The notes: generated from the letters alone by a model not told the origin. Shown: positions 12,807 to 36,710, counted from the whole stretch's first letter. The stretch: DNA of 59,515 nt, filler included, from 5 parts of 5 records of this genome joined end to end with filler, not necessarily neighbours in it, one strand, 5' to 3'. Numbers and translations: made by a program.

Positions 12807-15530
12807 TTAATTTTCTACATTGAACACAACCTTAATCATTGTACCATGACCATTTTCTGACACAATGTTTAAATACCCATTCATCGTAGCTGCCCTTTCT
12901 TTGATACCTAAAATTCCAAATGATTTAATGCCGCCTCTGGATGATGCTTTTTGAATACCTATACCATCATCTTGAATTTTTAAGATTATTTCCTTTCCTT
13001 CAGCCCTCAGTTCAATTTCAACATTCCGAGCTTTTGAGTGTCTGCTGATATTTGTTAAGGCTTCCTGAACAATCCTGAACAAAGAGATTGATTGAGTTTT
13101 ATTCAAAATGATCTCATCCAAATTGTGGACAAGATTGACATTAATATCATTGCGGCCCATAAAATTGGAAACGAGCCACTCAAGAGCTGGAATAAGCCCC
13201 ATATCGTCTAAAAGAGCCGGACGAAGTTCAGAGCAGATTTTTTTTACTGTTTGAACACTCTCTTTGATCATTTCTTCCATGTCAGTCATTTTTTCACTTA
13301 AAGTTGATTGGTCTGGAAGCAATCTCTTTTTCATCCATCCAATGTCTAATTTTAACGCAGACAGCGTTTGACCAAAATCATCATGAATTTCTCTTGAGAT
13401 AGCGGTTCTCTCTTTTTCAATTTGATTTTGCAGATGTGATGTAAAACGGCTCAATTCTCTGTTCGCCTGCTTGATTTCAGTCAAGTCAACTGTGACACCA
13501 AGAATTTCATGTAAATCTCCTTTGGTATCAAGCAAAGGGATACATGTTATTTGCAGATATTTTATGTTTCCATCCGGTAGTTTTATCTCAGTTTCAACGG
13601 ATCGTATTGTTTTTGTTTTCTTTGATTCAATCAGTGCCGGCAGATATTTATTATACATCTCAGGCGGCCATAGCTCCTGTTCTGTTTTGTTAATAAAGTC
13701 GGAACTGGGTCTTCCGGTAACAGCCCTTGTCGCTGAATTGATATATTGAATTCTTAAGTTAGTATCGTAAATGACTACAACATCCGGGATATTCTCAAGT
13801 GCTCTCTCAAATCGCTCTTTATTTATTGACAACTCAAGTTCCATTTTCTGTTTTTGGGTAATATCTCTGATAGTAGCCAATAAATGCCCATCAGGAAGCA
13901 TCGTTACTGAGACTTCAGCATCAAATGTTGAGCTGTCTTTTCTGATAAATTTCCACACACGCCAATAATCAGCGATTTCCTTTATTTTGTTTATCTCTGG
14001 TTCAATATTTTGTATTTCTTTCGGTGCAACAATGTCCGAAGCGTGTAACCCAACAAACTCGCTCAGTGAGTATCCCAGCATATTACACAATTTTTGGTTT
14101 GCATTGATGTAGTAGCTTTGTTGATCAGCAACTAAAACCCCATAGGGTGCGTATTCAAAGAGTTTTCGGTAGCTTTCCTCACTGTGCTGTAATTTCTCTT
14201 CAATTTTTTTTCTTTCCGTAATATCAATCATGATCGTTACATGATGAGGTTCTCCTTCGATTTCCATTGGTTCTGAAGAAAAAAGAATTGTGAGAATTTT
14301 ACCGGATTTTGACCGAGCCTTTAATTCCGTCTCTTTTAGTCCTCCTGAATCAAGCTGGGCAGTTATGAGTTTCTTTTTTTGTTCTAAACTGATCATTTTC
14401 AAATCGGTCGAATTAGACCCTAAGACCTCTTCACGGGAATATTCAAACATTTTAAGAAATGATTCATTTACATCTATAAATTTTCCATCTTTAATTCGTG
14501 TGATTGTTAGGCCTGCAGGACTGCTGTGGAATGCATGGGAAAATCTTGTTTCTGAAGAACGAAGGTCCTCTTCTTTTTTTATCTGTTCAGTAACGTCTAT
14601 GATGTTTCCAAACAAACGATATACCCTATTGTGTTTGTATTCGACTTCAGCAATCGTCCGTACCCAAAGTTTATTGCCTAATGCTGTGTTTAGTTTTAAC
14701 GTCAGGTCGTAGGATTTTCCTTCTGATAAAGCCATATCAAAAGCTTTTTGTATTGTCGCCTGGTCATTTTCTTCATAAAATGAAATATTTGTTTCCAGGT
14801 TATTGGGATCGAAAGTATTCATATCCACCTCATGAATACGATATACTTCTTCAGTCCAGTAAATCGTCTGATCTTTTACATCATATTCCCATCCGCCGGA
14901 CTTGGTAATCCTTTGTGTTTGGTTTAAAATTGAGGCACTTTTTTTTAATTGTTCTTTTGTCTTTTCCTGCCTTTCCATACTGTGTAACACAAAACCAAAC
15001 AGCACTGTTGCTAAGGGAAAAATCAATAAAACTGGGAATGAAATCGTTTTCAAAATATTATACGAAATCTCTATGGGGAGTGTAAGCATCCACAATAACA
15101 TGGTGATGTGCACCACGATGCCAAAGAGATAAAGCGGAACAGGTTTATGATAATGTTGGCGGAACCTTTTATTGTGATGAATAATTGCCCCTATCAACCC
15201 GGATGTTACTATAACCCCAATCCCTGTCCACATTCCCGTACCGCCAAGTACAGCTCTATAAACGGATGATATAACAATGCTGACAACTGCAGGCAAAAGA
15301 CCTCCGAAGAGTCCTGCAACACTCACAATCATGGACCGGCCGTCAAATATCACACCAGGTGCATATTCAAACGGAATCATCATGCCAAATACTGCAGAAA
15401 ACCCAAATAAAGAACCCATTAAGAGTTTTCGAGTAGATGGGGCAAACTCCGCTCTACTGATGATGAACCAATAGATTATGCTCATCGATAAGAGTAGAGA
15501 AATGTTGTTGATCAAATCTACAAAAATCAT
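12807..15530 (-). CDS. Sensor histidine kinase (5TM-LytS-type input, about 4 PAS domains, HisKA_3, HATPase)
   Basis: N-terminal GVIFDGRS...GLFGG membrane domain, repeated PAS/PAC (DITERK), EIHDDFGQTL, QEALTNISRHS. Confidence 0.93.
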   Translation of the reverse strand: MIFVDLINNISLLLSMSIIYWFIISRAEFAPSTRKLLMGSLFGFSAVFGMMIPFEYAPGVIFDGRSMIVSVAGLFGGLLPAVVSIVISSVYRAVLGGTGMWTGIGVIVTSGLIGAIIHHNKRFRQHYHKPVPLYLFGIVVHITMLLWMLTLPIEISYNILKTISFPVLLIFPLATVLFGFVLHSMERQEKTKEQLKKSASILNQTQRITKSGGWEYDVKDQTIYWTEEVYRIHEVDMNTFDPNNLETNISFYEENDQATIQKAFDMALSEGKSYDLTLKLNTALGNKLWVRTIAEVEYKHNRVYRLFGNIIDVTEQIKKEEDLRSSETRFSHAFHSSPAGLTITRIKDGKFIDVNESFLKMFEYSREEVLGSNSTDLKMISLEQKKKLITAQLDSGGLKETELKARSKSGKILTILFSSEPMEIEGEPHHVTIMIDITERKKIEEKLQHSEESYRKLFEYAPYGVLVADQQSYYINANQKLCNMLGYSLSEFVGLHASDIVAPKEIQNIEPEINKIKEIADYWRVWKFIRKDSSTFDAEVSVTMLPDGHLLATIRDITQKQKMELELSINKERFERALENIPDVVVIYDTNLRIQYINSATRAVTGRPSSDFINKTEQELWPPEMYNKYLPALIESKKTKTIRSVETEIKLPDGNIKYLQITCIPLLDTKGDLHEILGVTVDLTEIKQANRELSRFTSHLQNQIEKERTAISREIHDDFGQTLSALKLDIGWMKKRLLPDQSTLSEKMTDMEEMIKESVQTVKKICSELRPALLDDMGLIPALEWLVSNFMGRNDINVNLVHNLDEIILNKTQSISLFRIVQEALTNISRHSKARNVEIELRAEGKEIILKIQDDGIGIQKASSRGGIKSFGILGIKERAATMNGYLNIVSENGHGTMIKVVFNVEN

Positions 15531-15817: not shown

Positions 15818-15917
15818 NNNNNNNNNNNNNNNNNNNNNNNNNNNNNNNNNNNNNNNNNNNNTTAATTAATTAANNNNNNNNNNNNNNNNNNNNNNNNNNN
15901 NNNNNNNNNNNNNNNNN
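15818..15917. other. Artificial contig linker
   Basis: 44 N + TTAATTAATTAA (stop in all six frames) + 44 N. Confidence 0.99.
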
Positions 15918-16368
15918 ATGTATCTTGCATATCTCTAGCTGGATGATACGCAGGAAGATTAAGAGCTTCAAAGTTATGAAAATCATCTTCAACTAAAGGA
16001 CCATCTTCAACACTAAAGTTTAAGTTTTGAAAGTAAGTTGTAATCTTTGCAAGAGTTGCTGCAACAGGGTGATATGCTCCATTGTTTTTCGATGGCTCAA
16101 ATTTTGTTACATCAATCTTCTCAGCTTCTAATTGTTTCTCTAACTCTTTTGCTAATAAAAGTGTTTTTTGGGTTTCCAGTGCTTCAGTTACTTTTGCTTT
16201 TTGTTGATTAAGATGCTGAGCAAATAGTTTTTTCTCATCACTTGGAATATCTTTCATTTTTGCAAACTCTGTAGTTAAGACACCTTTTTTCCCTAAGATA
16301 TCTACTCTTAAAGATTCTAAAGATTCTAAAGAATCACAGGTTTGTATTTTTTCGATCCACTCTTGCAA
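15918..16368 (-). CDS. pheS: Phenylalanine--tRNA ligase alpha subunit, N-terminal part (truncated by contig end)
   Basis: LGKKG, IDVT, HP, NFEALNLPAYHPARDMQDT. Confidence 0.95.
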
Positions 16369-17543: not shown

Positions 17544-17813
17544 ATGAGTAGTTTTATAGTTTTATTAATAGTTATTGCACTTTTCATAGCCTTTATAAGA
17601 TTTTTAAAAGGCCCAGATCTTTTTAATCGTGTAATATCTTTTGATGTGATGAATATCATTGTAATTTCATTATTAGTGGTATTAAGTATTGAGTTTAAAA
17701 GTAGTTTGTATATAGATATTGCTTTTGTTTTTGGTATTTTAGGCTTTTTAGGAGTGATTCTTTTTGCTAGATTTAGCATAGTAGATAAAGAGGAGGATAA
17801 AAAAGATGATTGA
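17544..17813 (+). CDS. mnhF: Mrp antiporter subunit F (MbxB/MbsB equivalent)
   Basis: 89 aa, 3 TM, RFLKGPDLFNRVISFD, YIDIA. Confidence 0.9.
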   Translation: MSSFIVLLIVIALFIAFIRFLKGPDLFNRVISFDVMNIIVISLLVVLSIEFKSSLYIDIAFVFGILGFLGVILFARFSIVDKEEDKKDD

Positions 17814-18120
17814 TATTCTTGGTTTTATCTTTATGGTGTTAGGGGCACTTTTTTTACTTATTAGTGCATTAGGGCTTTTACGAATGCCTGATCTTCTTTC
17901 TCGTATGCATGCAGGGACAAAATCTTCCACTTTAGGAACGATCTTAGTTCTATTAGGAGCAATTTGTTTAGAGCCTACTTTATGGTTTAAACTCTCCCTA
18001 TTGATTTTATTTGTTTTATTGACCAATCCATTATCCGCTACTATTTTAGGAAGAAGTTCATATTTAAAAAATGGATTTTTAAATAAGAGTGGAATTGATG
18101 AGATGGAGAAAAAACAATGA
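17806..18120 (+). CDS. mnhG: Mrp antiporter subunit G (MbxC equivalent)
   Basis: GLLRMPDLLSRMHAGTKSSTLG, LTNP. Confidence 0.92.
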   Translation: MIDILGFIFMVLGALFLLISALGLLRMPDLLSRMHAGTKSSTLGTILVLLGAICLEPTLWFKLSLLILFVLLTNPLSATILGRSSYLKNGFLNKSGIDEMEKKQ

Positions 18121-18362
18121 CTGGTTTATTGATTATTCTTAGTTTTATTGCATTAATTATCACTACTTTTTTTGTGATCTTTGAAAAAAATCTATCGCAG
18201 AGTGTTATACTGTTTTTAGGTTTTGGATTTGGATCAACGATTCTTTATTTTTTATTTTCAGCTCCAGATGTAGCACTTACAGAAGCAGTGATTGGGACAA
18301 GTTTAAGTGCTATTGTTTTTTTAATCACTATTTTACATACAAAACAAAAAGGGAAAATATGA
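18117..18362 (+). CDS. DUF4040 / MbhD-like membrane subunit (MbxD equivalent)
   Basis: APDVALTEAVIG motif; 81 aa, 3 TM. Confidence 0.88.
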   Translation: MTGLLIILSFIALIITTFFVIFEKNLSQSVILFLGFGFGSTILYFLFSAPDVALTEAVIGTSLSAIVFLITILHTKQKGKI

Positions 18363-19063
18363 ATTTAAAAAAGCAGATCCCTTTAAAAACGATTCTAGTT
18401 TCCCTTTTAGTATCATTTATTATTATCGTTTTAATTCAGGTTTTTCTAGGAATTGAACAGACTAATAACTCTTTAGGTCAATCGCTTTTACAAATGAATC
18501 TAGAACAAACGGGGAGTGCCAATGCCGTAACTTCAGTAGTAACCTATTTTCGAGCTTTAGATACTTTAGGAGAAGTAACCATTTTATTTTTATCAATTTT
18601 TGGAATCTCTTTAACTTTAGAAAATCTCTCAAATAAATCAAATATTTTTGCCTATGAAAATAAGATCTTACAAATTGGAACTAAAGTGATTGCACCACTT
18701 ATTATTCTATTTGGAATCTATATTATTTTACATGGACATCTAAGTCCCGGAGGTGGATTTCAAGGGGGTGTAATAATTGCAAGTGGTTTTCTTTTACACT
18801 TTCTTGCATATGGAGATGGATTTAATCTAAACCATAAAATAGTTACTCTTTTTGAGTCTTTAAGTGGAGCTGGATTTATCATAGCTGGAATCTTATCTTT
18901 TCTTTTAGTGAATCAGTTTTTAGGAAACTTTCTTCCTTTAGGGGAAGTTAGAAACCTTTTTAGCGCAGGTATTATCCCTATCATCTATATTTTTGTAGGG
19001 CTAAAAGTCGCTTCAGAGATCACAGTGATGATCGAATATTTTTTAAAGGGAAAAGATGTTTGA
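18359..19063 (+). CDS. mnhB: Mrp antiporter subunit B (fused MbhE/F type; MbsE equivalent)
   Basis: NAVTSVVTYFRALDTLGE, HGHLSPGGGFQGG. Confidence 0.92.
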   Translation: MNLKKQIPLKTILVSLLVSFIIIVLIQVFLGIEQTNNSLGQSLLQMNLEQTGSANAVTSVVTYFRALDTLGEVTILFLSIFGISLTLENLSNKSNIFAYENKILQIGTKVIAPLIILFGIYIILHGHLSPGGGFQGGVIIASGFLLHFLAYGDGFNLNHKIVTLFESLSGAGFIIAGILSFLLVNQFLGNFLPLGEVRNLFSAGIIPIIYIFVGLKVASEITVMIEYFLKGKDV

Positions 19064-19442
19064 GTTTTTCAATGACCCTAAAATAATCTCTTCAAGTGTT
19101 CTTATAGGATCTTTTATTATCTTTGGAATAGCACTTTTAGGGGTTATGATCCAAAAAAATCTCATCAAGATATTTATCGCTTTATCGATTGCAGAAGCGA
19201 GTCTCTTTTTATATTTTATAGGAAGCCATTTTAGTCATGGAAAGGTTGCTCCGATTGTGACTGACTCAGTAAAAGAGTTTAGTCCACAAATGGCTGATCC
19301 AGTTCCACAAGCGATGATATTAACCACTATCGTAATAGCTATTGCAGTTTTAGCATTAGCATTATCATACATTACTAAGTATTATTCTTTTACAAAGAAT
19401 CTTGATATTTCTAAAATGGATGAGTTAGGAGAGGACAAATGA
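19056..19442 (+). CDS. mnhC: Mrp antiporter subunit C (MbxG equivalent)
   Basis: KNLIKIFI, DPVPQAMILTTIVI. Confidence 0.92.
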   Translation: MFEFFNDPKIISSSVLIGSFIIFGIALLGVMIQKNLIKIFIALSIAEASLFLYFIGSHFSHGKVAPIVTDSVKEFSPQMADPVPQAMILTTIVIAIAVLALALSYITKYYSFTKNLDISKMDELGEDK

Positions 19443-20830
19443 GTTTATCTTTTTTTATTGCTCTTCCTTTATTATTGTCATTTTTAACACCGCTGTATAA
19501 AAATATCCTTGGATTTATCTCCATTACTATGCATTTAGCTTTATTTGGTTTTTTATTTTATTTCTATTCATTATTACCTATAAAAGAGTTTATTAGTTTT
19601 GATTCTCCGTTAGCTATTACTTTTGTGTTGGATCAAACCAATTTTATCCTCTTATCATTATTTATAAGTGTTTCATTTTTTATTACACTATTTTCTTTAA
19701 ACACTGGCATCAATAGAGAAAAATTTATCGCCACTTCTCTTCTTTTAGTAGGAGTAATGGGACTACTTTTAAGTATAGATATTTTTAATATCTATATCTT
19801 TTTTGAGATAGCAAGTATAAGCAGCTATATTTTAAGTTCACTCAATAAAGATAAACAAGCCTATGGAGCTGCTATTCGATATATGATTATTGGAGCAGTT
19901 GCTTCAATATTTTTATTACTTGGAATTATCCTTATCTATTTAAATCTTGGGACGTTAAATCTTTATACGATAGGGGAGATTTTTTATACACTCTCAACTA
20001 GCTTGCAGTTTATTATTTTTATCTCTTTTCTTATTGGTTTTGGGATTAAAAGTGAGATATTCCCTTTAAATTTTTGGGTAGCAGATATCTATCAAGGAAC
20101 TACCTCTTTAAATGCTTCATTTTTTAGTGGAATCGTTTCATCAACTTATATTTTTGTACTTTTTTCAGTATTACGTTTTTTTACTATTGAAGAGAATATC
20201 CTATGGGCTTTAATGCTTATTGGAGGGCTTAGTTTTTTAACAGCTGAACTCTCAGCATTAAAAGCAAAACATCTAAAAAGAATTTTTGCTTTTTCTACCA
20301 TGGGACAATTAGGAGTGATGTTTTTAGCTTTTGCTTCAAATAATCAAACAGTGATAAGTGGAGCACTCTATCTTATGGTGATCCACTCAGTTGCAAAATT
20401 AAGTCTTTTTTTATCTTTAGATATTTTGGAAAAACATTTTGAAAAGCTTTCTATTGATATTTTTCAAAAACTTGAATCACTCTTTTTAATAATAGTTTTT
20501 ACTATAGGCTTTTTATCCATCTTAGGGATTCCACCGTTTGGAGGATTTATTGCAAAACTTACTATTTTACAAGGATTGGGAGAGATACAAGCATATGGTT
20601 TTATTGGCTTGATTCTTATTATTTCTATCATTGAAGCAGTATACTTTTTTAGACTCCTTAGTTTTAATGTAAAAAAAGAAAACCCAATAAAAATTCAAAT
20701 ACCATTTATCCAAAAAATGGTATTGATTATTCTCTCTCTAAGTCTTTTATATCTAGGAATTTTCCCAGATTGTCTAATGGACTTAGTTTATGAAGCAGCA
20801 AATAGTTTTGTAAGGAATACATATGTTTAG
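19439..20830 (+). CDS. mnhD: Proton-translocating antiporter-like subunit (MrpD/MbxH)
   Basis: DIFNIYIFFEI, GIKSEIFPLNFW, KRIFAFST, GIPPFGGFIAK. Confidence 0.9.
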   Translation: MSLSFFIALPLLLSFLTPLYKNILGFISITMHLALFGFLFYFYSLLPIKEFISFDSPLAITFVLDQTNFILLSLFISVSFFITLFSLNTGINREKFIATSLLLVGVMGLLLSIDIFNIYIFFEIASISSYILSSLNKDKQAYGAAIRYMIIGAVASIFLLLGIILIYLNLGTLNLYTIGEIFYTLSTSLQFIIFISFLIGFGIKSEIFPLNFWVADIYQGTTSLNASFFSGIVSSTYIFVLFSVLRFFTIEENILWALMLIGGLSFLTAELSALKAKHLKRIFAFSTMGQLGVMFLAFASNNQTVISGALYLMVIHSVAKLSLFLSLDILEKHFEKLSIDIFQKLESLFLIIVFTIGFLSILGIPPFGGFIAKLTILQGLGEIQAYGFIGLILIISIIEAVYFFRLLSFNVKKENPIKIQIPFIQKMVLIILSLSLLYLGIFPDCLMDLVYEAANSFVRNTYV

Positions 20831-22451
20831 TTTTGAGGTAACAGCTTTAGGAAATCTATTTTTTATTTTACAGCTTTGTGTATTTCTATCCCTTATATTT
20901 TTAATCAATATGAAAAAAGAGATTCTTTTATATACCCTTTTATTTGTCTCCTTTACAATGATCTTTTATGCGGATAACTTTTTAACACTCTTTATCGGAT
21001 GGGAGATTATGGGGTGGAGTAGTTTTTTTCTTATGGGAAAAAATACCCAAGTACAAACCTTACAAAAATATATTGTTTTTAATCTAGCTGGAGCCTTTGC
21101 TTTTTTAGGAGCTATTATCCTTATTTACAGTTTTTGTGGAAGTTTTTCTTATCATCTATTAGAGCTTGCTAAAATCCCGTTAGAGTTTATATTTTTGATC
21201 TCCACTTTATTTATGATAACTATTTTTATAAAATCAGGTGTGGTACCATTTCATTTTTGGATCGTAGATAGTTATAAGGAATCAAATCATACCTTTAGTG
21301 CAATGTTAAGTGCTTTGATCTCTAAAGCTGGGATATTTTTATTTTTACTTGTTTTTTATAAACTCTCTTTTTTAACTCTAAATGATGGAAAATATTTCTT
21401 TACTATTGTAGCATGGCTTGGAGCTATCACTTCAATTATTACAACCTTTAAAGCGATCTATCAAGATGAGATAAAAAAACTTTTAGCCTACTCCTCTATT
21501 GCTCAAATAAGTTATATTATCACTATTTTAGCGATTGTAAGTGATAGTGCTATGGGAGCTGCATTGTATCATACGATTATCCATCTTTTTGTAAAACTTC
21601 TTTTATTTATTAATGTAGCTGCACTTATTGTTATTAGTACCAAAGAGAAGTTTGAAGATTTTGGAGCACTTTTATATAAATATCCAGTGGCATTTATCTC
21701 TTTAGTTATTGGAATCATAGTTCTTGCTGGAATGCCACCACTTGGAGGTTTTAGTAGTAAGTTTTTAATCTATACAACATTACTAGAACAAAAAGAGGGA
21801 TTTTTATTAGCTGCTGTGATGTTTAGCGGTGCCGCTTCATTTCTTTACTGTTATAAATTAGTCTATGGGATCTATTTAGGATCACCTACAAAAAGCTCAC
21901 GTGAAATCACAAAACCGATTCCAAAACGTTTTTATATTCCACAGATACTAGCTGTGATCGTAGTAGTAGTCTTAGGAGTTTTCCCAGCAAGTGTAATTCC
22001 ATATTTTAATACTATTTTAAATGAGATGGGGTATGCTAGCTTAATATATTCAGATATTTTTACACTGGAAAGTCCTTTTGGTTCATTTAATGGTGGAGTG
22101 GTGATTGGAGTATTTGTTGCTTTATTTATCCTAATTTTACTTTTACTTTTAAGATTAAAAAATAAAGTAAGAGCTGTAGATGATCAGTATGATATCAGCT
22201 ACTGTGGAGAGGTGCCGAGTGAGCAAAACAATCTTCACTTTGGGTATGGGATGGCAAAAGAGATACGACGGATCAGTTTTATAAAAGTGATCCTTTTTAA
22301 TAGTTCAAAAAAGTTTTGGGATAATCTGGTGAAGTTTTTCTATGATGCCTCTGATATCTTAAGGTCACTTTATAATATAAGCGTACAAAATAGTGTGTTA
22401 GTGATGGTTGCTGTTTTTGCTATTGCATTAGCCTATGGAGTAACAAAATGA
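20823..22451 (+). CDS. Second proton-translocating antiporter-like subunit (MbxH-prime; NuoL/M family)
   Basis: LFIGWEIMGWSS, KSGVVPFHFW, KKLLAYSSIAQ, GMPPLGGFSSK, C-terminal YCGE extension. Confidence 0.88.
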   Translation: MFSFEVTALGNLFFILQLCVFLSLIFLINMKKEILLYTLLFVSFTMIFYADNFLTLFIGWEIMGWSSFFLMGKNTQVQTLQKYIVFNLAGAFAFLGAIILIYSFCGSFSYHLLELAKIPLEFIFLISTLFMITIFIKSGVVPFHFWIVDSYKESNHTFSAMLSALISKAGIFLFLLVFYKLSFLTLNDGKYFFTIVAWLGAITSIITTFKAIYQDEIKKLLAYSSIAQISYIITILAIVSDSAMGAALYHTIIHLFVKLLLFINVAALIVISTKEKFEDFGALLYKYPVAFISLVIGIIVLAGMPPLGGFSSKFLIYTTLLEQKEGFLLAAVMFSGAASFLYCYKLVYGIYLGSPTKSSREITKPIPKRFYIPQILAVIVVVVLGVFPASVIPYFNTILNEMGYASLIYSDIFTLESPFGSFNGGVVIGVFVALFILILLLLLRLKNKVRAVDDQYDISYCGEVPSEQNNLHFGYGMAKEIRRISFIKVILFNSSKKFWDNLVKFFYDASDILRSLYNISVQNSVLVMVAVFAIALAYGVTK

Positions 22452-23323
22452 TAGATATATTTTTAATGATTCTTATAGCATATGGATTTGGGTTTTTATA
22501 TTCAGGGCTTTATAGAAATATCAGTGCAAGGGTTCATGGAAGATATGGTCCCTCTTTAGCACAATCTTTTTTTGATAGTATCAAGCTTTTTTCCAAAGAA
22601 AACTCTACCAATTTTGGATGGATGTTTTATCTAGGTCCCGTGATTATGGCAAGTGGAGCGATTCTTACAGTTCTTTTTATTCCATTTTTAAATCATGGGG
22701 AGTTCTTAACAGGATTTAGCTCTTACGGAAATCTTATTATCATATTATACTTTATGGTTCTAGGGCCTTTAGGAAATGCTTTAGGAATAGGAAGTAATGG
22801 AAACCCTTTTGGGGTAATGGGAGTTTCACGAGGGCTCACTCGACTCATAGGCTTAGAGCTTCCATTTTATATAGCAATGATTGGTCTAATGATGGCAAAT
22901 GGAACCGCTGATATCTCAGTCATTATGGCAAATCAGCAAGAGGGCTATAACGCCTTTACTTATCCACTTTTATTTATTGCTGCTTTTATTTCATTTTTAG
23001 GTTTTATGGGAAAATCACCTTTTGATGTGGTAGGAGCTCCTCAAGAGGTATATAGTGGACCAGCAAGTGAATTTAGCGGAAAGTTTTTTGCATTAGCGAT
23101 GTCTCAAAGTGCAATGTTCTCTTTTGCTAAACTCTTATTGATGGTCAATCTATTTTTAGGTGGAGCAGATAATATTTTTGATCTAGTTCTTAAGACATTT
23201 ATATTATTTATCGCAGCAGTGTTTACAGGAAATGTATTTGGAAGATTAACAACGATTCAAAGTGTGGAGTTTTTAATAAAAGTTCCTACTGTTATAGCTC
23301 TTATCGGGTTAGCATTTATTTAA
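22448..23323 (+). CDS. nuoH: Complex I subunit 1 family membrane anchor (NuoH-like; MbxM)
   Basis: ARVHGRYGP, DSIKLFSKE, PFDVVGAPQEVYSGPASEFSG. Confidence 0.9.
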   Translation: MIDIFLMILIAYGFGFLYSGLYRNISARVHGRYGPSLAQSFFDSIKLFSKENSTNFGWMFYLGPVIMASGAILTVLFIPFLNHGEFLTGFSSYGNLIIILYFMVLGPLGNALGIGSNGNPFGVMGVSRGLTRLIGLELPFYIAMIGLMMANGTADISVIMANQQEGYNAFTYPLLFIAAFISFLGFMGKSPFDVVGAPQEVYSGPASEFSGKFFALAMSQSAMFSFAKLLLMVNLFLGGADNIFDLVLKTFILFIAAVFTGNVFGRLTTIQSVEFLIKVPTVIALIGLAFI

Positions 23324-23339
23324 AGAAAAAAGAGGAAAT

Positions 23340-24605
23340 ATGAAAAAAATAGTTTTATTATCAACAGTTACAGCCATGACATTATTAGCAACAAACGGAG
23401 ATCAAATGATGGGATATAGTCCTGTATCACGAGCTTTAGGTGGAACTGGAGTTGCTATCTTTAATGGATCATCAAATGCATTAACAAACCCTGCTTTACT
23501 TTCTAAAACAGGTGTAACCAATGAATTTTCATTTGGTGGAACTCTTTTTAGTCCAGATGTTCAGGTATCTACAACGGCAGGAAGTGTTGAAGATCCCACT
23601 GTTGGAGTAGATAAAACAAGTGATCAGGGTATAAGTATGATACCTGTGATTGCACTTTCTCATAGAGTTTCAGATACGACTGTATTTGGTCTTGGGATGT
23701 ATGGAACTGCAGGTATGGGAACAGATTGGAGAGGAAGTGATGTCAATGCTGCTCTTGGTCAAGTTGATCTTTATAATATGAGAAGCTCTTTGATGCTAAT
23801 GCAGTTTGCTCCATCTTTAGCTTATGGAACAGACTCTTTTGGAGTTGGATTTACTGGGATCATTCAATATGGTGCTTTAAGTATCGATTATGATACAGCA
23901 GATTATCTAGGAAATCCAACACATATAGGAAGTGGAGAATCAAATGATTTTGGATTTGGTTTTCAACTTGGAGGATATTATAATCTTACACCATCTTTAA
24001 CTCTAGGAGCAGTGTATAAATCAGCTATTGATATGGAATATAAAGATCAAATTAGTAAAGCTGCTTTGGCGTTTGGATATGGATCAACATCGACTGCATT
24101 AGCTGGCAAATCAGATCATCTTGAACAACCAGCTGAGATTGGGATTGGGATTGCATATGATATGAACAATATTATATATACAGCTGATATCAAAGAGATC
24201 CAATGGGGTGAAGCAAAAGGGTATAAAGATTTTGCTTGGGAAAATCAAACAGTAGTAGCTTTAGGGATTAAATATGTTCAAAAAAGCTATTGGTTAGGAG
24301 TTGGATATAACTATGGTGAAAATCCTATTCCAAATAATACAGATTCTACAAGCGTAGCAGGTGGGATGAATACTAATGGAGACACCATGAATCTTTTTAA
24401 TTATGCAATGTTTCCAGCTACTATCACTTCTGCATACTCTTTAGGTGGTGGATTTGATATGGGAGAAAATATGAGTATGGATCTTGCTTATACCTATGCT
24501 CCAAAAGTAAAAGATACAGTAAGTGGTACAACAGTTGGGGTTGGTGATATTACAACAAGCCATTCACAAAACGCTTTAACATTTGCATTTAACTTTAAAT
24601 TTTAG
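23340..24605 (+). CDS. OmpP1/FadL/TodX family outer-membrane channel
   Basis: Sec signal peptide, mature N-terminus TNG...SRALGGTGVA...NPA hatch motif, amphipathic beta-strands, C-terminal beta-signal FAFNFKF; 421 aa. Confidence 0.9.
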   Translation: MKKIVLLSTVTAMTLLATNGDQMMGYSPVSRALGGTGVAIFNGSSNALTNPALLSKTGVTNEFSFGGTLFSPDVQVSTTAGSVEDPTVGVDKTSDQGISMIPVIALSHRVSDTTVFGLGMYGTAGMGTDWRGSDVNAALGQVDLYNMRSSLMLMQFAPSLAYGTDSFGVGFTGIIQYGALSIDYDTADYLGNPTHIGSGESNDFGFGFQLGGYYNLTPSLTLGAVYKSAIDMEYKDQISKAALAFGYGSTSTALAGKSDHLEQPAEIGIGIAYDMNNIIYTADIKEIQWGEAKGYKDFAWENQTVVALGIKYVQKSYWLGVGYNYGENPIPNNTDSTSVAGGMNTNGDTMNLFNYAMFPATITSAYSLGGGFDMGENMSMDLAYTYAPKVKDTVSGTTVGVGDITTSHSQNALTFAFNFKF

Positions 24606-24624
24606 TAGTGATAAAGGGTCAAAG

Positions 24625-25236
24625 ATGCAAGAAGGTTTTACAAGTTACCAACAAAGTTTAGAAAATGAAGAAGAGTCTTTAAAATCTACCCAAACAGTTA
24701 TCCAAAAAGCGATAGATTGGTTCAGGTCTCGAAGTATGTTCGTTTTAGCCTATGGGACAGGATGTGGGGCAATTGAGATGCCACCTACATTTACAAGTAG
24801 ATATGATATAGAAAGATTAGGAGTAGTAGGAGTTGCTACTCCTAGACAAGCAGATATTTTAATCGTATCAGGGTATTGCTCTCCAAAAACTCTTAAAAGA
24901 GTAATTCGAAGTTATGAACAGATGAATGATCCAAAATATGTGATAGGACTTGGAAGCTGTACTATTAATGGTGGGATGTATTGGGATAGTTATAATACCA
25001 TTAAAAAGCTAGATGATTATATCCCCGTAGATATGTATGTCAATGGATGTATGCCAAGACCTGAAGCTTTGATAGAGGGATTTGTACAGTTACAAAACAA
25101 TATTCGGCATAGTACAAAAAAAGCCGGATATAAAAAATATCAAGATGAGTATACATTTTATCAAGCCAATCAAGAAAAACTTTTTGGAAAAAATAAAGCT
25201 CCAAAGTATCTAGAAAATTTTGCAGGGAATCTATAA
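24625..25236 (+). CDS. nuoB: NuoB-like Fe-S subunit (MbxJ/MbsJ type)
   Basis: GTGCGAIEMPP..SRYDIERLG, TPRQAD, GSCTINGGMYWDSY, GCMPRPE. Start set to ATG 24625 (RBS AAAGGG) to avoid overlap with the OMP gene. Confidence 0.92.
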   Translation: MQEGFTSYQQSLENEEESLKSTQTVIQKAIDWFRSRSMFVLAYGTGCGAIEMPPTFTSRYDIERLGVVGVATPRQADILIVSGYCSPKTLKRVIRSYEQMNDPKYVIGLGSCTINGGMYWDSYNTIKKLDDYIPVDMYVNGCMPRPEALIEGFVQLQNNIRHSTKKAGYKKYQDEYTFYQANQEKLFGKNKAPKYLENFAGNL

Positions 25237-25793
25237 TGTCAATAGAAAAGTTACAAGAGCATTTTGTAGTATGTCAAAAAGAGAGTACTTTATATAAAGT
25301 CTCTTTTTCAAAAAATGAGTTGGTAGAAAAGATAAAACTTCTTGATACTTTAGGGTTTATCACATTATCCATGATTAGCTGTACTGATTGGATAGAAGAG
25401 GAAAAGTTTTGTCTCAATTATATCTTAACGACAGAACAAAGAGATATAAACCTTTTATGCGAAGTAGAATTGGAGCGAGAAAATAGTTCTATACAAAGTA
25501 TAAGTGAGTTGTACCAGCAAGCTGAAATCTTTGAGCGAGATCTTTGGGAGATGTTTGGTATTGATTTTATAGGAAATAAAAATCTTGTAGAATTATCCTT
25601 AGAGGATTGGGAACATATCCCACCACTTCGACGTGAGTTTGATACTTTAGCTTTTGTGAATGAACATTTTGATTTTCGTAATGGAAGAGATGACAATAAA
25701 GATGTAAAAGTGGAACTAAAAAGAAGAAAAGAGGAAGCCAAAAAACTCAAAGAGCAAGAAGAATTGGCAAAAAAGGAAAATGATGGAGAATAA
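25236..25793 (+). CDS. nuoC: NuoC-like subunit (MbxK)
   Basis: CTDWIEE, FERDLWEMFGIDFIG, LEDWEHIPPLRREFDT. Confidence 0.9.
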   Translation: MSIEKLQEHFVVCQKESTLYKVSFSKNELVEKIKLLDTLGFITLSMISCTDWIEEEKFCLNYILTTEQRDINLLCEVELERENSSIQSISELYQQAEIFERDLWEMFGIDFIGNKNLVELSLEDWEHIPPLRREFDTLAFVNEHFDFRNGRDDNKDVKVELKRRKEEAKKLKEQEELAKKENDGE

Positions 25794-26892
25794 TAAACTT
25801 ATTAAGATTTTCCATGGACCACAGCACCCTGGAGTAACAGGAAATATGAGTGTAGAGCTTGATCTTTTAGGGGAAACTATCCAAAAAGCTACTACTCATG
25901 TAGGGTATCTTCATAGAGGTTTTGAAAAACTTGTGGAGAGACGAACAGTTATCCAAGCTTTTACTATCGTTTGTCGTATCTGTGTTCCTGAACCAGACCC
26001 AAATGAAGAGAACTTTGCAAGAGCCATTGAGAGTTTGGCTGGAATTGAGATCAGCGAAAAAGCAAAATATATAAGAGTGATGGTCTTAGAAATGGCACGT
26101 CTTGGAGCACAAATGCTTTGGATGGCTGGACAAAGTGGTAGTATAGGGATGGGAACTGTTGGACAGTGGAGTGTCTATGATAGAGATCTGATCCTTGATC
26201 TTTTTGAAGAGCTTACAGGAGGGAGGGTATATCATATGTATATCTATCCTGGAGGGGTAAGAAGAGAATTACCTGAAGGGTTTTTAGAAAAACTAGAAAC
26301 GTATTTAGATTATCTAGAAAAAAAGTTATCTAAATATGATAAGATCTTTTTTGATAATGTAACTTTTAAAAAAAGAGCTATGGGTGTAGGGATCGTAAAA
26401 GCTGGGCAGGCTTTAAAAAATGGATATGTAGGAGCAGTTCTAAGAGGCTCAGGTATTCAAAGAGATGTACGAAAAGACAATCCATATCTAGTCTATGATA
26501 AATTAGAGTTTGATATCCCAACTGCAAACGAAGGTGATGTATATGCAAGAGCAATGGTACGACGAGAAGAGATGAATCAATCTATCAAAATCTTACGTCA
26601 AGTGATCGCTCAGATGCCAAAAGAGGGTGAGATTATGCAAAAGCTTCCAAAGCATAGAAAATTCACTCTTCCAAAAGATGATGTCTATGTGGCAACAGAA
26701 TCAGCTCGAGGTGAGTTTGGATACTATATAGCAGGTGATGGATCTGAATATATTCGAAGGATGCAGGTAAAAGGACCTTCCATGATTCATGGGTTTCCTT
26801 TACTTGAAAAACTGTTAGTAAATGAAGAGTTGTCCAATGTGGCAATGATCATGAACTCTTTAGGGATATGCCCTCCGGAGATAGAGCGATGA
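25780..26892 (+). CDS. nuoD: NuoD-like large subunit without a NiFe site (MbxL/MbsL type)
   Basis: GPQHPG, GYLHRGFEKL, RICVPEPD, ESARGE, C-terminus CPPEIER. Confidence 0.92.
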   Translation: MMENNKLIKIFHGPQHPGVTGNMSVELDLLGETIQKATTHVGYLHRGFEKLVERRTVIQAFTIVCRICVPEPDPNEENFARAIESLAGIEISEKAKYIRVMVLEMARLGAQMLWMAGQSGSIGMGTVGQWSVYDRDLILDLFEELTGGRVYHMYIYPGGVRRELPEGFLEKLETYLDYLEKKLSKYDKIFFDNVTFKKRAMGVGIVKAGQALKNGYVGAVLRGSGIQRDVRKDNPYLVYDKLEFDIPTANEGDVYARAMVRREEMNQSIKILRQVIAQMPKEGEIMQKLPKHRKFTLPKDDVYVATESARGEFGYYIAGDGSEYIRRMQVKGPSMIHGFPLLEKLLVNEELSNVAMIMNSLGICPPEIER

Positions 26893-27275
26893 AAATAGAT
26901 ATAAAAGGGACAATTAACCCATTTAGTGCTTTAACAAAAGTTTTAGAGCATCCAAATACGGTTTGTTACCCAGAAGAGAAAAAAGCTGAGGTGGCTGGAT
27001 ATAGAGGGTTTCATACAAACCTTTTAGAACTCTGTATTGGGTGTGCAAACTGCCAAGATGTATGTATGAATGAAGCGATTGATATGGTTTTAATCGATGA
27101 GGATAAAAATCCAAAAAATAAAAGTGGCTGTATCCCAAGAATTGATTATGGAAGATGTTGCTGGTGTAGTTTATGTACCGATGTATGTCCTCCTGATTCA
27201 TTAAGATTAGAGAGTGATTGTATCTGGGCAGGTGATGATAGTAATGACTTTTTATATATGCCAAAGGATAAGTAA
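26889..27275 (+). CDS. nuoI: NuoI-like 2x[4Fe-4S] subunit (MbxN)
   Basis: YRGFH, CIGCANCQDVC, DYGRCCWCSLCTDVCP. ATG 26889 overlaps the upstream stop (ATGA). Confidence 0.9.
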   Translation: MKIDIKGTINPFSALTKVLEHPNTVCYPEEKKAEVAGYRGFHTNLLELCIGCANCQDVCMNEAIDMVLIDEDKNPKNKSGCIPRIDYGRCCWCSLCTDVCPPDSLRLESDCIWAGDDSNDFLYMPKDK

Positions 27276-27724
27276 TGATAGGGAAGTTTATTTTACTTTT
27301 TTTAGTATGGATTGGGCTTACAAACTCTTTGGCTGTAGATGAGCTATTAGTAGGGGCGATAGTTTCTTTGATAGTAGTCTATTTTTTTACAGATCGATCA
27401 AAGTTGAATCTTTTAAGTGTGCTTAAAAAATATATCCTTTTTATCCCTTTATTTTTAAAAGAGCTGATCATCTCTAATATAGAAGTAGCAAAAATAGTGT
27501 TAAGTCCAAAGGTAGATATAAAAAGTGGGATTGTGGAGATTCAAACAAAGTTAGAAAATGATTCAGATAAGTTACTTTTGGCAAACTCTATTACTTTGAC
27601 ACCTGGGACTTTAACTTTGGAGCTTAATGAAGATCATTTATATATCCATGTGTTAGATATGGAAAAAAATCCAAAAGCTCAGTTGGAAAAAAATATAGAA
27701 AAGTTTGAAAAAGTTCTTGTATAA
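27275..27724 (+). CDS. mnhE: Mrp antiporter subunit E (MbxA equivalent)
   Basis: SNIEVAKIVL, LANSITLTPGTLT, LYIHVL. Confidence 0.94.
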   Translation: MIGKFILLFLVWIGLTNSLAVDELLVGAIVSLIVVYFFTDRSKLNLLSVLKKYILFIPLFLKELIISNIEVAKIVLSPKVDIKSGIVEIQTKLENDSDKLLLANSITLTPGTLTLELNEDHLYIHVLDMEKNPKAQLEKNIEKFEKVLV

Positions 27725-27735
27725 AAGAACTTCTC

Positions 27736-28731
27736 TTACATCTTTACACGACTTTGAATATCAATTGCTTCAATAGTCGTAAAATCTTTTTGTAAATATT
27801 GCTCAATCGCAACTCGACCTATCATCGCTGCATTATCACTACAGTATTTAAGTTCACTTAAAAGAAGTTCACAGTTAAATTCAGCACATAGTTTTTCAAT
27901 CTGTGAACGCAAAGCTTTATTGGCACTAGCTCCCCCAACTATAGCAAACTGTTTTGGTCTTGCAGTCTTAAAATACTTTTTTACTTTCATCATAATATGT
28001 TTTATAGCTGTTTCTTGAAAAGAAGCGCAGATATTATTGATAGTAGTTTCAGTTAAATTATCTGCATTTTCCTCTTTTTCAATCACAAGCCGCACAGCAT
28101 TTTTTAATCCACTATAACTAAACTCTATTTTCGGACTTTGTCTTAAAGGAATAGGAAGTTCATAACTATTTGGATCACCTTGCAAAGCATGTTTTTCTAC
28201 AATAGGACCACCGGGATATCCAAGTCCAAGCATCTTTGATACTTTATCAAAGCTCTCTCCAAAACTATCATCCATAGTTTCACCGATTATTTTTATATCG
28301 GTTAAATTTTTAGCCTCTAAAATTTGTGTATGTCCACCTGAGACTAAAAGAATAGTCGAAGGAAGTTTGGACTCTCCCTCAATAAAAAGAGAAAAGATAT
28401 GACCTTTTAAATGATTTACGGCAATTAATGGAAGCCCTAAAGAGATACTTAAAGCTTTTGCCATAGTTACTCCTTCCATAAGTGTTACACTTAGTCCTGG
28501 TGCATTTGTCACAGCTATCGCTTTTAAGTCTTTAAAATAAGGTTGACACTCTTTTAATATTTTTGGCAAAGCTTCCGCATGAAGTCTTGCAGCAAGTTCA
28601 GGTACAACTCCTCCATAGATACTATGATCAAGTTCTTGAGATATTTTTTTGTGATAGATCAGTTTTTTAGTTTTAATTTCTGTAATGGCGATAGAGCTAT
28701 CATCACAGCTGGATTCGATACTTAGGATCAT
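27736..28731 (-). CDS. tsaD: tRNA N6-adenosine threonylcarbamoyltransferase
   Basis: [47 protein letters not shown]. Confidence 0.97.
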
Positions 28732-29084
28732 TGATTCTCTTTTAAAATATTATTTACTACATCCAAAAAAGGATTTATCTTATATCTTAAAGTATCTTCA
28801 ATAATTCCTAAACTAACACCATCATAATCATGTGCTATAAAGTTTCTTACAGCAAATATCCCTTTTATATCTGAGGGTTGAAAATGATCTAAAATTTTTG
28901 ATTCCATTTTTTGTAATTTTGCAACTTGTTCAGCTATTGCAACTAAAAGCATTAAAATAGCAGGTTGTCCTTCTAAATCCTTTAATGCTTTTACAATTCC
29001 ATCATGTCTTTGTATAATTGAGTTAATATCATCTAACTTTTTTTTAATAGATTGTAGTTTAATGATCTCTTCATCATTATACAT
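28728..29084 (-). CDS. HEPN (DUF86) ribonuclease toxin, HepT-like
   Basis: RNFIAHDY = RX4HXY motif; follows the MNT gene. Confidence 0.9.
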
Positions 29085-29397
29085 AAATAGCCTTTTTTAA
29101 AATATAGGTATTATTATGTTGTAATAAGCCTTGTTTATCAACAATATCTATATCTTTTTGAAATTGATTTTTTAATAGTTCTCGATAATCTTCCAATCTT
29201 GAAAATGCATCCCATCCTCTATATTTTTTTAAAAATTCAGGTGTAGTTTCAATAAGTATATCAATATCACTATCCTCTTTAGCTTCATCTCTAGCGTATG
29301 AACCAAAAAGTCCTAAAAGCTTTAAATTGTCTTGTTCAAAGGTAGGTTGTAATTGTTTTAATTGAGTTAGTATATCTTCTTTTTTTAGAATTGACAT
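29077..29397 (-). CDS. Minimal nucleotidyltransferase antitoxin, MntA-like
   Basis: LFGSYARDEAKEDSDIDI = GSX10DXD. Confidence 0.92.
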   Translation of the reverse strand: MSILKKEDILTQLKQLQPTFEQDNLKLLGLFGSYARDEAKEDSDIDILIETTPEFLKKYRGWDAFSRLEDYRELLKNQFQKDIDIVDKQGLLQHNNTYILKKAIYV

Positions 29398-34541: not shown

Positions 34542-36710
34542 ATGAAACACATATTTTTTTTATTGCTATTTGCAATTAGCACAACTCTAAGTGCCCAAAC
34601 TATTTACGAAATTCAAGGCCAAACAGCAAATTCACCTTATGATGGCTCTGAAGTAACTGTTAAGGGAATTGTTACAGCTACTTATACTACCGGATATTTT
34701 ATTCAGGATGGCGATACAGCCTGGACAGGAATTTACATTTATGATCAGGGGAACTCACCTGCTCTAGGTGATTCAGTTACTTTGTCTGGAACAGTAGATG
34801 AGTATTATAACATGACAGAAATTATCAACCTAACAGGATTTGCTACAATTAATTCCGGGAATCCTTTACCTGAGCCTATTACGATTACTTCAGGTGAGGC
34901 TACTGAAGCCTATGAAAGTGTATTGATTCGAGTGGAAGAAGCAGAATGCACAAACCCGGATTTAGGATACGGAGAATGGGAGATTAATGATGGTTCAGGT
35001 CCGGTAGCTGTAGACGATATGGGTATTGCATTTGCTCCAACAATTGGTGTTTCATATACCGTTACTGGCCCATTAAATTATTCCTTTAGCGCATACAAAA
35101 TTGAACCCAGAGATGAAAACGACATTCAGGTAGCTGAAGCACTTTTCTTTACCAGTCCTCTTAGTATTAGCAATATTGAAGAGACCAGTGTAACACTCTC
35201 ATGGGAAACAAATGCAGCTTCATCAACACATTTAGCCATTGGAACATCTGAAGGTTTAGAAATGGACACCATAATAGATGCTACTGAAACTACAGAGCAT
35301 GAAGTTGTTCTTGAAGGGTTAACGGCTAATTCATTTTACTATATCAAACCTTTTTCAGTGAGTGGAGAAGATACTACCATAAGTCTTATTTCAATGATTG
35401 CTACAAAGTCAACCTCGTCAGGTGAAATGAAAGTATATTTCAACCATTCAATTGACAGCACTGTAGCGTGGGAAAACTATGCCGTTTCTATTCCAAATGA
35501 CTTTACTGATACGATTATTTCATACATCGATATGGCTCAAACAACGCTGGATATTACCATGTATGACATTGTGGATACCACTGATGGTCAGGTAATCAGA
35601 ATTATGCATGCCATAAATGATGCTTACGACAGAGGTGTTGATATTCGCTACATTACAGATGACGAACCCGAAAATCCACTATTAGATAGTTTAAATGCCA
35701 ACATCAATATTTTAGCTGGAAATACAGAAGCTATTATGCATGATAAATTCATGATCATTGATCGTGATGATATCCAAAACAGCTGGGTGCTGACAGGCTC
35801 AACTAACCACACGATTGCTAACTTAAGAAAAGATTACAACAACATAATTTGCATTCAGGACTATCAATTGGCACAAGCCTATACCCTAGAATTCAATGAA
35901 ATGTGGGGAAGTGAAACGTTAACACCTGATCCAGGAGTAGCGCTGTTTGGAGCTGATAAAACAGACAATACTCCTCACTTTTTCAATGTAGCAGGAATTG
36001 ATGTTCAATTATATTTTTCACCTTCAGACAAAACAACCTCAAAAATCATTGAAGTTATTGACAATGCCCAGGAATCACTTGAATTTGCATTGTTAGTATT
36101 CACAGAAAACACGCTAGGCACAGAAGTTTTAGATGCCCATAACCGTGGAGTTGATGTCCGTGGAATTGTCGATTATACGGATTATTCTGGAGATGAGTAT
36201 CACTATTTATTAGATAATGGAGTTAACGTGCTTGAATATGAAAATGAAGATGGTTCTCAGTGGCCTATTGGTGCTACATTGCACCACAAATATGCTGTAA
36301 TTGATCAAAATACTGATAATGCAGTATTAATTACCGGTTCTCACAACTGGTCGGCCTCAGGTGAAAGTCGTAACGATGAAAATACTTTAATCATCCATGA
36401 TCGAAATATGGCTAACCTCTACTACCAGGAATTTTCAAAAAGGTTTGATGAGTTGTTAGCCCTCTCAACTAACGATATAGTAATTGGAAATGAACTTAAG
36501 ATTTATCCAAATCCTACTCAAGAATTAGTCAACATTGATGCTGAAGGAAACGGAACTTATCGTATTTTCAATTTACAGGGCAAAATAGAAAATGTTGGAA
36601 AAATTAAACAAGGAACTAATCAACTAAATATTGAGTTGGTTGATGGATTATACATTATAGAAGTACAAACAAATAATCAGATATTTAGATCAAAATTAAT
36701 TGTTGAGTAA
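34542..36710 (+). CDS. T9SS-secreted phospholipase D/nuclease family protein with OB-folds and an FN3 domain
   Basis: Signal peptide; TIYEIQG...GYFIQD OB-fold; FN3-like segment; two HKD motifs (HDKFMIID, HHKYAVID) with GSxN; C-terminal IYPNP...GLYII...KLIVE sorting domain. Confidence 0.88.
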   Translation: MKHIFFLLLFAISTTLSAQTIYEIQGQTANSPYDGSEVTVKGIVTATYTTGYFIQDGDTAWTGIYIYDQGNSPALGDSVTLSGTVDEYYNMTEIINLTGFATINSGNPLPEPITITSGEATEAYESVLIRVEEAECTNPDLGYGEWEINDGSGPVAVDDMGIAFAPTIGVSYTVTGPLNYSFSAYKIEPRDENDIQVAEALFFTSPLSISNIEETSVTLSWETNAASSTHLAIGTSEGLEMDTIIDATETTEHEVVLEGLTANSFYYIKPFSVSGEDTTISLISMIATKSTSSGEMKVYFNHSIDSTVAWENYAVSIPNDFTDTIISYIDMAQTTLDITMYDIVDTTDGQVIRIMHAINDAYDRGVDIRYITDDEPENPLLDSLNANINILAGNTEAIMHDKFMIIDRDDIQNSWVLTGSTNHTIANLRKDYNNIICIQDYQLAQAYTLEFNEMWGSETLTPDPGVALFGADKTDNTPHFFNVAGIDVQLYFSPSDKTTSKIIEVIDNAQESLEFALLVFTENTLGTEVLDAHNRGVDVRGIVDYTDYSGDEYHYLLDNGVNVLEYENEDGSQWPIGATLHHKYAVIDQNTDNAVLITGSHNWSASGESRNDENTLIIHDRNMANLYYQEFSKRFDELLALSTNDIVIGNELKIYPNPTQELVNIDAEGNGTYRIFNLQGKIENVGKIKQGTNQLNIELVDGLYIIEVQTNNQIFRSKLIVE

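Follow-up and report, generated by a model that had tools for sequence, protein, structure and literature searches.

Why should a gene for a channel of the outer membrane stand in the middle of an operon for a respiratory complex, and what might such a channel carry? The question is raised by a locus at positions 17544–27724 of the window, by which we mean the whole stretch of DNA that was analysed (59,515 nucleotides (nt), filler included, joined from 5 parts of 5 records of one genome that need not be neighbours in it). An open reading frame (ORF) listing of the window placed 14 closely packed ORFs there, all in the same orientation on the + strand, of which thirteen are predicted to encode a complex of the membrane-bound sulfane reductase type (MBS/Mbx) and the ninth a barrel of the FadL/TodX family. 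As far as sequence can tell, this FadL-interrupted Mbx operon is real, and it is a new operon layout of known components; we describe its junctions and parts, the occurrence of each part without the other, and the readings that may account for their meeting.

The interrupted operon and its parts

The barrel gene (23340–24605, + strand) lies between a NuoH-like membrane anchor gene (22448–23323, the MbsM equivalent) and a NuoB-like gene (24625–25236, the MbsJ equivalent). Adjacent ORFs of the operon share 1–25 nt, save at the barrel gene, which is preceded by a spacer of 16 nt (23324–23339) and followed by one of 19 nt (24606–24624); in an alignment with five congeneric operons these spacers are the upstream and downstream insertion junctions, and the first holds the barrel's own ribosome-binding site, an AGAGGA motif 5 nt upstream of its ATG. 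The length of the downstream gap depends on the start of the NuoB-like gene, for which an alternative longer frame runs from a TTG at 24583; the ATG at 24625 is the most likely start because the congeneric alignment supports it. A terminator scan found no terminator-like site on the + strand within 23200–24700, promoter-like sites across the region were at shuffle level (51 against 49.2 expected from shuffles), and there were no RNA data sets among the public runs listed as holding the locus. Because the two spacers are too short for a terminator, read-through from the Mbx promoter can be expected, and the barrel gene is, judged by spacing, almost certainly co-transcribed with the Mbx genes.

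The product of this gene, 421 amino acids (aa) long, matched the Pfam family Toluene_X (PF03349) at 84.6 bits against a cut-off of 29.7. Among PDB sequences it matched TodX, TbuX and CymD, with expect values (E) from 4e-16 to 8e-12, and E. coli FadL gave no match at E≤0.01. An AlphaFold (AF2) model was confident (predicted local distance difference test score (pLDDT) 90.9, predicted template modelling score (pTM) 0.87), and the top Foldseek matches of the model were E. coli FadL, TodX, the P. aeruginosa FadL homologue, TbuX and CymD, with template modelling (TM) scores of 0.60–0.72; those for FadL and TodX were 0.66–0.72, with E from 1e-23 to 1e-20. The N-terminus of the protein resembles a signal peptide, and residues 50–52 form an NPA motif, of which N50 and P51 are invariant among 53 aligned sequences (alignment A3). 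On these matches and the predicted fold, the extra gene does encode a barrel of the FadL/TodX family, for which we infer an outer-membrane location and a hydrophobic cargo. Compared with its counterpart in the nearest genome, G001, the gene shows 33 synonymous and 7 non-synonymous differences, a ratio of non-synonymous to synonymous change (pN/pS) of 0.062 that lies within the range of neighbouring operon genes (0.04–0.10, with MrpE at 0.35). Its substitution pattern is that of an intact, functional gene under purifying selection.

The other thirteen genes account, by Pfam, for each of the thirteen MBS/Mbx subunit types with one gene apiece (A, B, C, D, E, G, H, H′, M, J, K, L and N), the letters of the small subunits being in part our assumption. 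The first half of the operon encodes, in order, an MrpF/PhaF-like small membrane subunit of the Na+/H+ module (17544–17813; PF04066, E 8e-14), an MrpG/PhaG-like small membrane subunit (17806–18120; PF03334, E 2e-24), and membrane subunits that are MbhD-like (18117–18362; PF13244, E 1e-18), MnhB/MbhE-like (18359–19063; PF04039, E 2e-24, with a weak match to PF20501) and NuoK/MrpC-like (19056–19442; PF00420, E 7e-20). Two antiporter-type subunits of the Proton_antipo_M family (PF00361) follow, the first MrpD/NuoN-like and of 463 aa (19439–20830; E 3e-46), the second MrpD-like and of 542 aa (20823–22451; E 4e-45), and then the NuoH-like anchor (NADHdh, PF00146, E 2e-50; 6u8y_M, E 3e-40). Beyond the Toluene_X gene come the NuoB-like subunit (PF01058; 6u8y_J, E 4e-60), a NuoC-like subunit (25236–25793, the MbsK equivalent; PF00329, E 4e-22), a NuoD-like catalytic-arm subunit (25780–26892, the MbsL equivalent), a short, two-cluster ferredoxin-type NuoI-like subunit (26868–27275, the MbsN equivalent; Fer4 families of Pfam; 6u8y_N, E 6e-17) and an MrpE-like subunit (27275–27724, the MbsA equivalent; MNHE, PF01899, E 2e-41; 6u8y_A, E 2e-28).

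For all five subunits tested against the PDB (L, J, A, N and M) the top match was 6U8Y, the MBS of P. furiosus. The NuoD-like protein matched 6u8y_L at E 1e-92, against 4e-66 for complex I and 3e-37 for MbhL of the membrane-bound hydrogenase MBH (6cfw_L); 6u8y_M was the sole match of the NuoH-like protein at E≤1e-25, and 6u8y_N that of the NuoI-like protein at E≤1e-12. In the MBS type two of the four [NiFe] cysteines are lost and C85 and C385 of MbsL are left (PMC7684303); C68 (in RICVPEPD) and C364 (in CPPEIER) of the window protein align with these two and are invariant in the MbxL alignment A2. MbsJ C28, C93 and C123 ligate the proximal [4Fe-4S] cluster, one iron of which is free, and C25 is non-ligating (PMC7684303); aligned to 6u8y_J, the NuoB-like protein has the three predicted proximal-cluster cysteines and a glycine at the position of C25. 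The same source describes MBS as without the quinone-headgroup residues of complex I, H38 and Y87 of Nqo4, and in an ungapped alignment to 2fug_4 these His and Tyr positions are T20 and V69 in the NuoD-like protein. By subunit inventory, best matches and hallmark residues, the 13 flanking genes are those of an MBS/Mbx-type complex, predicted to be ferredoxin-oxidising, ion-translocating and Mrp-linked, and the locus documents such complexes in Campylobacterales. The related complex of Pyrococcus reduces sulfane sulfur, with an active site in the form of a chamber that is hydrophobic and into which hydrophobic substrates can pass; dimethyl trisulfide is among the compounds reduced by this enzyme (PMC7684303).

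The original prediction, made before any of these searches, had described 14 co-oriented genes with overlaps or very short gaps, a FadL/TodX-type gene at 23340–24605 with 16- and 19-nt gaps and its own ribosome-binding site, no visible terminator, and an MBS/MBX inventory in the remaining 13 genes. The ORF listing, the terminator scan, Pfam, the PDB and Foldseek matches, the AF2 model and the hallmark residues together bear out this description.

Each part without the other

Several lines of evidence indicate that the layout exists in nature. The nearest genome, G001, has the same order of NuoH-like, barrel, NuoB-, NuoC-, NuoD-, NuoI- and MrpE-like genes, with 94–99% protein identity and 93–99% nucleotide identity per gene. 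A 2691-nt contig from another study (X2) spans both junctions (22900–24971, 65 differences); the NuoH–barrel junction is bridged by record 7 of X3 (22900–23423, 62 differences) and by record 16 of X5 (23250–23635, 43 differences), both at ~88–89% identity, and record 17 of X5 covers 23627–24651 and reaches 46 nt beyond the barrel stop. The public run X1 was not counted as independent, as it may be the window's own source, and no contig joining the NuoH-like to the NuoB-like gene minus the barrel was present among the matching public-run contigs. A misassembly around 23323–24625, a risk that the original prediction had raised, is rejected, as the junctions recur in G001 and, from three other studies, in contigs of X2, X3 and X5; for the same reason the layout exists in several natural populations, and the insertion persists across populations up to about 12% diverged.

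We then compared the junction with that of other Mbx operons, and the barrel was inside none of the 85 with a readable junction (5 of the same genus, 12 of the same order and 68 of other phyla). MbxL is present at ≥80% identity in 7 of the 28 genomes of the genus, and in all five congeneric operons with the junction on the contig the NuoH-like gene is followed after a short spacer by the NuoB-like gene; their DNA alignment shows a clean insertion limited to the window and G001. Across the order, this Mbx type was found in 14 of 401 sampled Campylobacterales genomes, which fall in 9 of the 96 genera and 6 of the 26 families; outside G001 the identity is 73–83%. So patchy a distribution points to recurrent loss or transfer inside the order. 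The junction was visible in 12 of 13 further Campylobacterales loci and uninterrupted in all 12, with no FadL-like ORF within 3–4 kb on either side of the 13. For more distant operons, one genome per GTDB species was scanned with an MbxL alignment as query; there were at least 595 matches, and the comparison used the 80 best, among them Bacteroidales, Melioribacter, Cloacimonadota, Spirochaetes, Thiodiazotropha, Sedimenticola, Thermotogae and others. Both the NuoH- and the NuoB-like gene are visible in 68 of these 80 loci and adjacent in 67; the remaining locus (L171) is rearranged and has no barrel. Inside the 80 operons there was no unlabelled ORF of at least 150 aa, save one antisense frame.

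Of the Mbx-positive congeners, three (G019, G022 and G011, 97–99% complete) gave no match to PF03349, and three others (G017, G042 and G025) have, by the Pfam model, one gene each of another FadL subfamily, on contigs other than that of Mbx. From these gene-content comparisons, the Mbx complex does not need the barrel, which is a recent, lineage-specific insertion in one shallow lineage. The view of the channel as a built-in part of the operon, with which the original prediction had started, does not survive this comparison: outside that lineage the barrel is absent from all related operons that could be read, and a survey of Toluene_X genes near diderm Mbx operons found them inside 0 of 85 and one gene downstream at 2 of 98 loci, with Mbx at 0 of 74 loci of related barrels.

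Those 74 metagenome loci hold barrels of 33–68% identity to that of the window, and Mbx genes lie near none of them; at least 700 nt of flank was available on one or both sides in 50 of the 74, and on both sides in 19. After G001, the closest relatives of the barrel are metagenomic (60–74% identity) or come from Sulfuricurvum, Sulfurimonas and Campylobacterales (58–65%), followed by Gammaproteobacteria, a tubeworm endosymbiont and Thiomicrospira (46–49%); among the 120 best matches, every named relative belongs to a sulfur-oxidiser lineage or to a broader taxon. Of seven genome loci with barrel relatives, only that of G001 has an Mbx gene in the DNA available around it. The congener G023 carries a 63%-identical orthologue beside fabI-, pgsA-, rseP- and dnaG-like genes and gave no MbxL match. 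Read from gene context, the barrel does not need Mbx either.

At many loci of barrel relatives (for example L022, L023, L036, L051 and L083) one or two genes for secreted proteins lie downstream of the barrel, followed by a MarR gene. The secreted proteins are a DUF302-like protein of ~316 aa and proteins of 265–306 aa that have no Pfam match, and a DUF4395 membrane protein is encoded upstream in metagenome loci. Barrel, DUF302-like or other secreted proteins and MarR look like a conserved uptake cassette. The DUF302-like relative in G001 is only 23% identical and is encoded elsewhere in that genome.

The host of the window is a marine, low-GC Campylobacterales bacterium, probably of the Arcobacteraceae, whose lineage is present in sediments, biofilms and mats: the best named matches of its CTP synthase are Campylobacterales, Arcobacteraceae and Arcobacter sp. 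(84–88%), and its G+C content of ~30% fits this assignment. The Sulfurovum and Nitratifractor labels on the closest MbxL loci were not used as host identity. Elsewhere in the window are a PLD-like protein with Por_Secre_tail, the sorting domain of type IX secretion (34542–36710), and a 1067-aa Reg_prop/Y_Y_Y sensor kinase (45639–48842), both more typical of Bacteroidota than of Campylobacterales; the Bacteroidota origin that they had led us to suspect was rejected on the CTP synthase matches. Upstream of the operon, a pheS-like ORF of 168 aa (15862–16368, − strand) holds the N-terminal domain and the first 69 of 246 catalytic-core positions, and abuts a gene for a 907-aa PAS/5TMR-LYT histidine kinase (12807–15530) with a G+C content of 0.37–0.41 against ~0.30 around it; inserted DNA may have cut the ORF short, or two sequences may have been joined in assembly. 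Downstream of the operon and just downstream of tsaD, a HepT-like RNase gene (28728–29084, − strand) overlaps a 106-aa upstream ORF (29077–29397), and the pair is probably a HepT/MNT-type toxin–antitoxin.

Accounts of the insertion and of the cargo

The account that we favour, tentatively, makes the barrel an accessory passenger that came into the operon by promoter capture and is not a working part of the complex. A FadL/TodX-family channel gene would have been inserted cleanly between the NuoH- and NuoB-like genes in one shallow lineage and would be read through from the Mbx promoter. Its protein would go to the outer membrane and there, by lateral diffusion as in the rest of its family, let in an uncharged hydrophobic compound of small size; it may keep the job of its orthologues in Mbx-less relatives, the insertion having mainly supplied an expression signal. 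Uptake would then be tied to the conditions in which Mbx is expressed, without direct hand-over of substrate. Contact between a barrel of the outer membrane and a complex of the inner membrane is not expected. If the account is true, the locus illustrates neatly how a foreign gene can be retained at the centre of a multi-subunit operon.

A number of points weigh against such a passenger. It leaves the cargo without a name, and the persistence of a mid-operon insertion in diverged populations is easier to understand if it does something useful in that place. Characterised members of the family, such as TodX, TbuX and CymD, are usually encoded together with enzymes that consume their cargo. By Pfam profile, the window-type barrel is the only Toluene_X gene of G001, and no acyl-CoA dehydrogenase was matched in G001, G023 or G019, an absence that is not proven for G001, which is 95% complete. 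Lastly, at 2 of the 80 distant loci a FadL-family gene stands downstream of the Mbx operon, on the same strand and with a single gene in between. In Tropicimonas isoalkanivorans (L136) it follows a rubrerythrin-like gene after a gap of ~420 nt, and in a metagenome-assembled genome of Cloacimonadota (L142) it follows a CBS-pair gene after ~120 nt. With densities taken from these two genomes themselves (2 Toluene_X matches in 5.0 Mb for Tropicimonas; 1 strong and 2 weak in 3.3 Mb for L142), ~0.15–0.33 such genes would be expected in 367 kb of flank, which gives a rough, post hoc Poisson p of 0.01–0.04.

A possible but more doubtful account takes up, in a weaker form, the delivery role inferred in the original prediction: the barrel would belong to a FadL subfamily of sulfur bacteria and act as an accessory sulfur channel that passes cyclooctasulfur (S8) or organic polysulfanes. 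With its gene placed in the Mbx operon, the channel would be made together with the machinery for sulfane reduction on the cytoplasmic side. The cargo would partition into membranes and so reach the hydrophobic chamber of the L, J and M subunits. The chamber and the dimethyl trisulfide activity of MBS fit such a cargo (PMC7684303), and the window complex keeps the MBS hallmarks. The barrel's standing as the sole FadL-family gene of a genome in which acyl-CoA dehydrogenase was not found speaks for it too, if weakly, as do the sulfur-oxidiser lineages (or broader taxa) of its named relatives and the two distant loci with FadL downstream. DUF302-like periplasmic proteins, its relatives' usual downstream neighbours, recall the DUF302 genes within the sox clusters of several sulfur oxidisers (PMC5037610), and a FadL-family protein of Chlorobaculum tepidum, CT2230, has already been proposed for hydrophobic sulfur chains (bioRxiv 10.1101/172254).

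These points are, however, offset by others. The association goes back to a single evolutionary event with no parallel among the 85 other operons, Mbx-positive congeners (G019, G022 and G011) have no FadL-family gene, and orthologous barrels exist without Mbx. The two adjacent FadL genes belong to another Mbx type, in which MbxN is fused to a GltD-like module, and to FadL subfamilies other than that of the window barrel; the other Cloacimonadota and alphaproteobacterial loci of the set have no FadL gene downstream. The Tropicimonas genome (G045) has 17 acyl-CoA dehydrogenase matches, many on the contig of its Mbx-adjacent FadL gene, and fatty acids therefore fit there. No FadL-family protein is known to carry sulfur, and for Campylobacterota it is OprD-like porins that have been put forward (PMC10045233). 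Bacterial Mbx-type complexes, too, have only a presumed substrate, and S8 would still need a way across the periplasm. We regard as unlikely the broader claim that this FadL subfamily is the long-sought channel by which hydrophobic zero-valent sulfur, as S8 or organic polysulfanes, passes the outer membrane, and that in this lineage it was fused transcriptionally to an MBS-type sulfane reductase. On that view, the many members of the subfamily in Sulfurimonas, Sulfuricurvum, Thiomicrospira-type and symbiotic sulfur bacteria belong to hosts that would not need to import fatty acids. A barrel of the hydrophobic-cargo family in a sulfane-reductase-type operon is a concrete and cheaply testable candidate for the step that takes insoluble elemental sulfur through the outer membrane. 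Were sulfur its cargo, this diderm would have uptake and respiration of elemental sulfur together in one complete module; the locus points to a whole barrel subfamily in sulfur bacteria.

Import of long-chain fatty acids or a lipid-like nutrient, paired with ferredoxin-dependent anaerobic respiration, is improbable, and equally so the use of the imported lipid in membrane building or as a source of electrons or carbon. The nearest fold to the barrel in Foldseek is E. coli FadL, relatives are annotated as long-chain fatty acid transporters, and the Mbx-adjacent FadL gene of Tropicimonas shares its contig with many acyl-CoA dehydrogenase genes. Those annotations are automatic, however, and by sequence the barrel matches TodX, TbuX and CymD rather than E. 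coli FadL. Fatty-acid import for β-oxidation is unlikely because G001, G023 and G019 lack a detectable acyl-CoA dehydrogenase and have a weak thiolase-family match only, probably a ketoacyl synthase (KAS)-type enzyme; on the same grounds, fatty-acid catabolism is disfavoured as the fate of the cargo. It is extremely improbable that the assembly is chimeric or that the inserted gene is dead: the window comes from a metagenome-type assembly of which the best-holding run, X1, may be the source, but the layout is repeated in G001, X2, X3 and X5, and the barrel has an intact frame, a confident model and a low pN/pS.

Relation to known complexes and channels

A full-text literature search, with subscription journals and supplements outside its scope, returned no relevant paper combining FadL with Mbx, and full-text searches for Mbx in Sulfurimonas, Sulfurovum, Epsilonproteobacteria or Arcobacter, of the same scope, returned none that was relevant; one listed paper mentions both membrane-bound sulfane and Campylobacterota. 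The complex is best compared with the MBS of P. furiosus (6U8Y), with which it shares the 13 subunit types, both MbsL cysteines, the three ligating cysteines of MbsJ, the absence of the complex I quinone His and Tyr, and a short MbsN. It differs in its diderm bacterial host, in a gene order that ends in the MrpE-like gene, in the glycine at MbsJ C25 and in the outer-membrane barrel gene that interrupts the operon; the identity of the L subunit is only in the 40s per cent by a by-eye reading of the alignment, and a matching activity and substrate are predicted. The Mbx operons of Bacteroidales, Cloacimonadota, Spirochaetes, sulfur-oxidising Gammaproteobacteria and others have the same Mrp-plus-NuoHBCDI set, with L subunits 43–62% identical. 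Most of those outside Campylobacterales begin with the MrpE-like gene, whereas the Campylobacterales type ends with it and has a short MbxN. In most bacterial Mbx operons outside Campylobacterales (among L098–L175) the NuoI-like ORF is of ~600 aa; in the two loci checked (L136:10114–11910 and L142:10086–11930) MbxN is fused to a GltD/NfnB-like module (Fer4_20 and Pyr_redox_2), a fusion that points to a form of the complex linked to NAD(P)H.

Two published candidates bear on the barrel as a sulfur channel. CT2230 is a FadL-family protein of a sulfide-repressed regulon in C. tepidum and has been proposed to move hydrophobic sulfur chains (bioRxiv 10.1101/172254). Both it and the window barrel are FadL-family outer-membrane proteins linked to zero-valent sulfur metabolism, with a role that is hypothetical in both; CT2230, however, belongs to a sulfur oxidiser and is linked through its regulon, whereas the window barrel is linked through gene context, and the two are likened by description only. 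OprD-like porins have been proposed for uptake of elemental sulfur (S0) in Sulfurovum and Sulfurimonas on the evidence of transcript induction by S8, and according to this 2023 Sulfurovum study, a sulfur-transporting outer-membrane protein has been confirmed in no sulfur bacterium (PMC10045233). These porins and the window barrel are alike as putative outer-membrane sulfur routes in Campylobacterota; they belong to different protein families, and the evidence for the barrel is its gene position only.

Within its own family, the window barrel shares with E. coli FadL and with the TodX, TbuX and CymD channels the Pfam Toluene_X domain, the signal peptide, the NPA motif and a predicted barrel fold, which superposes on FadL and TodX. 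It is 14–19% identical to the solved FadL/TodX members, its host has no detectable β-oxidation, and, unlike those channels, it is encoded inside the operon of a respiratory complex rather than that of a catabolic pathway.

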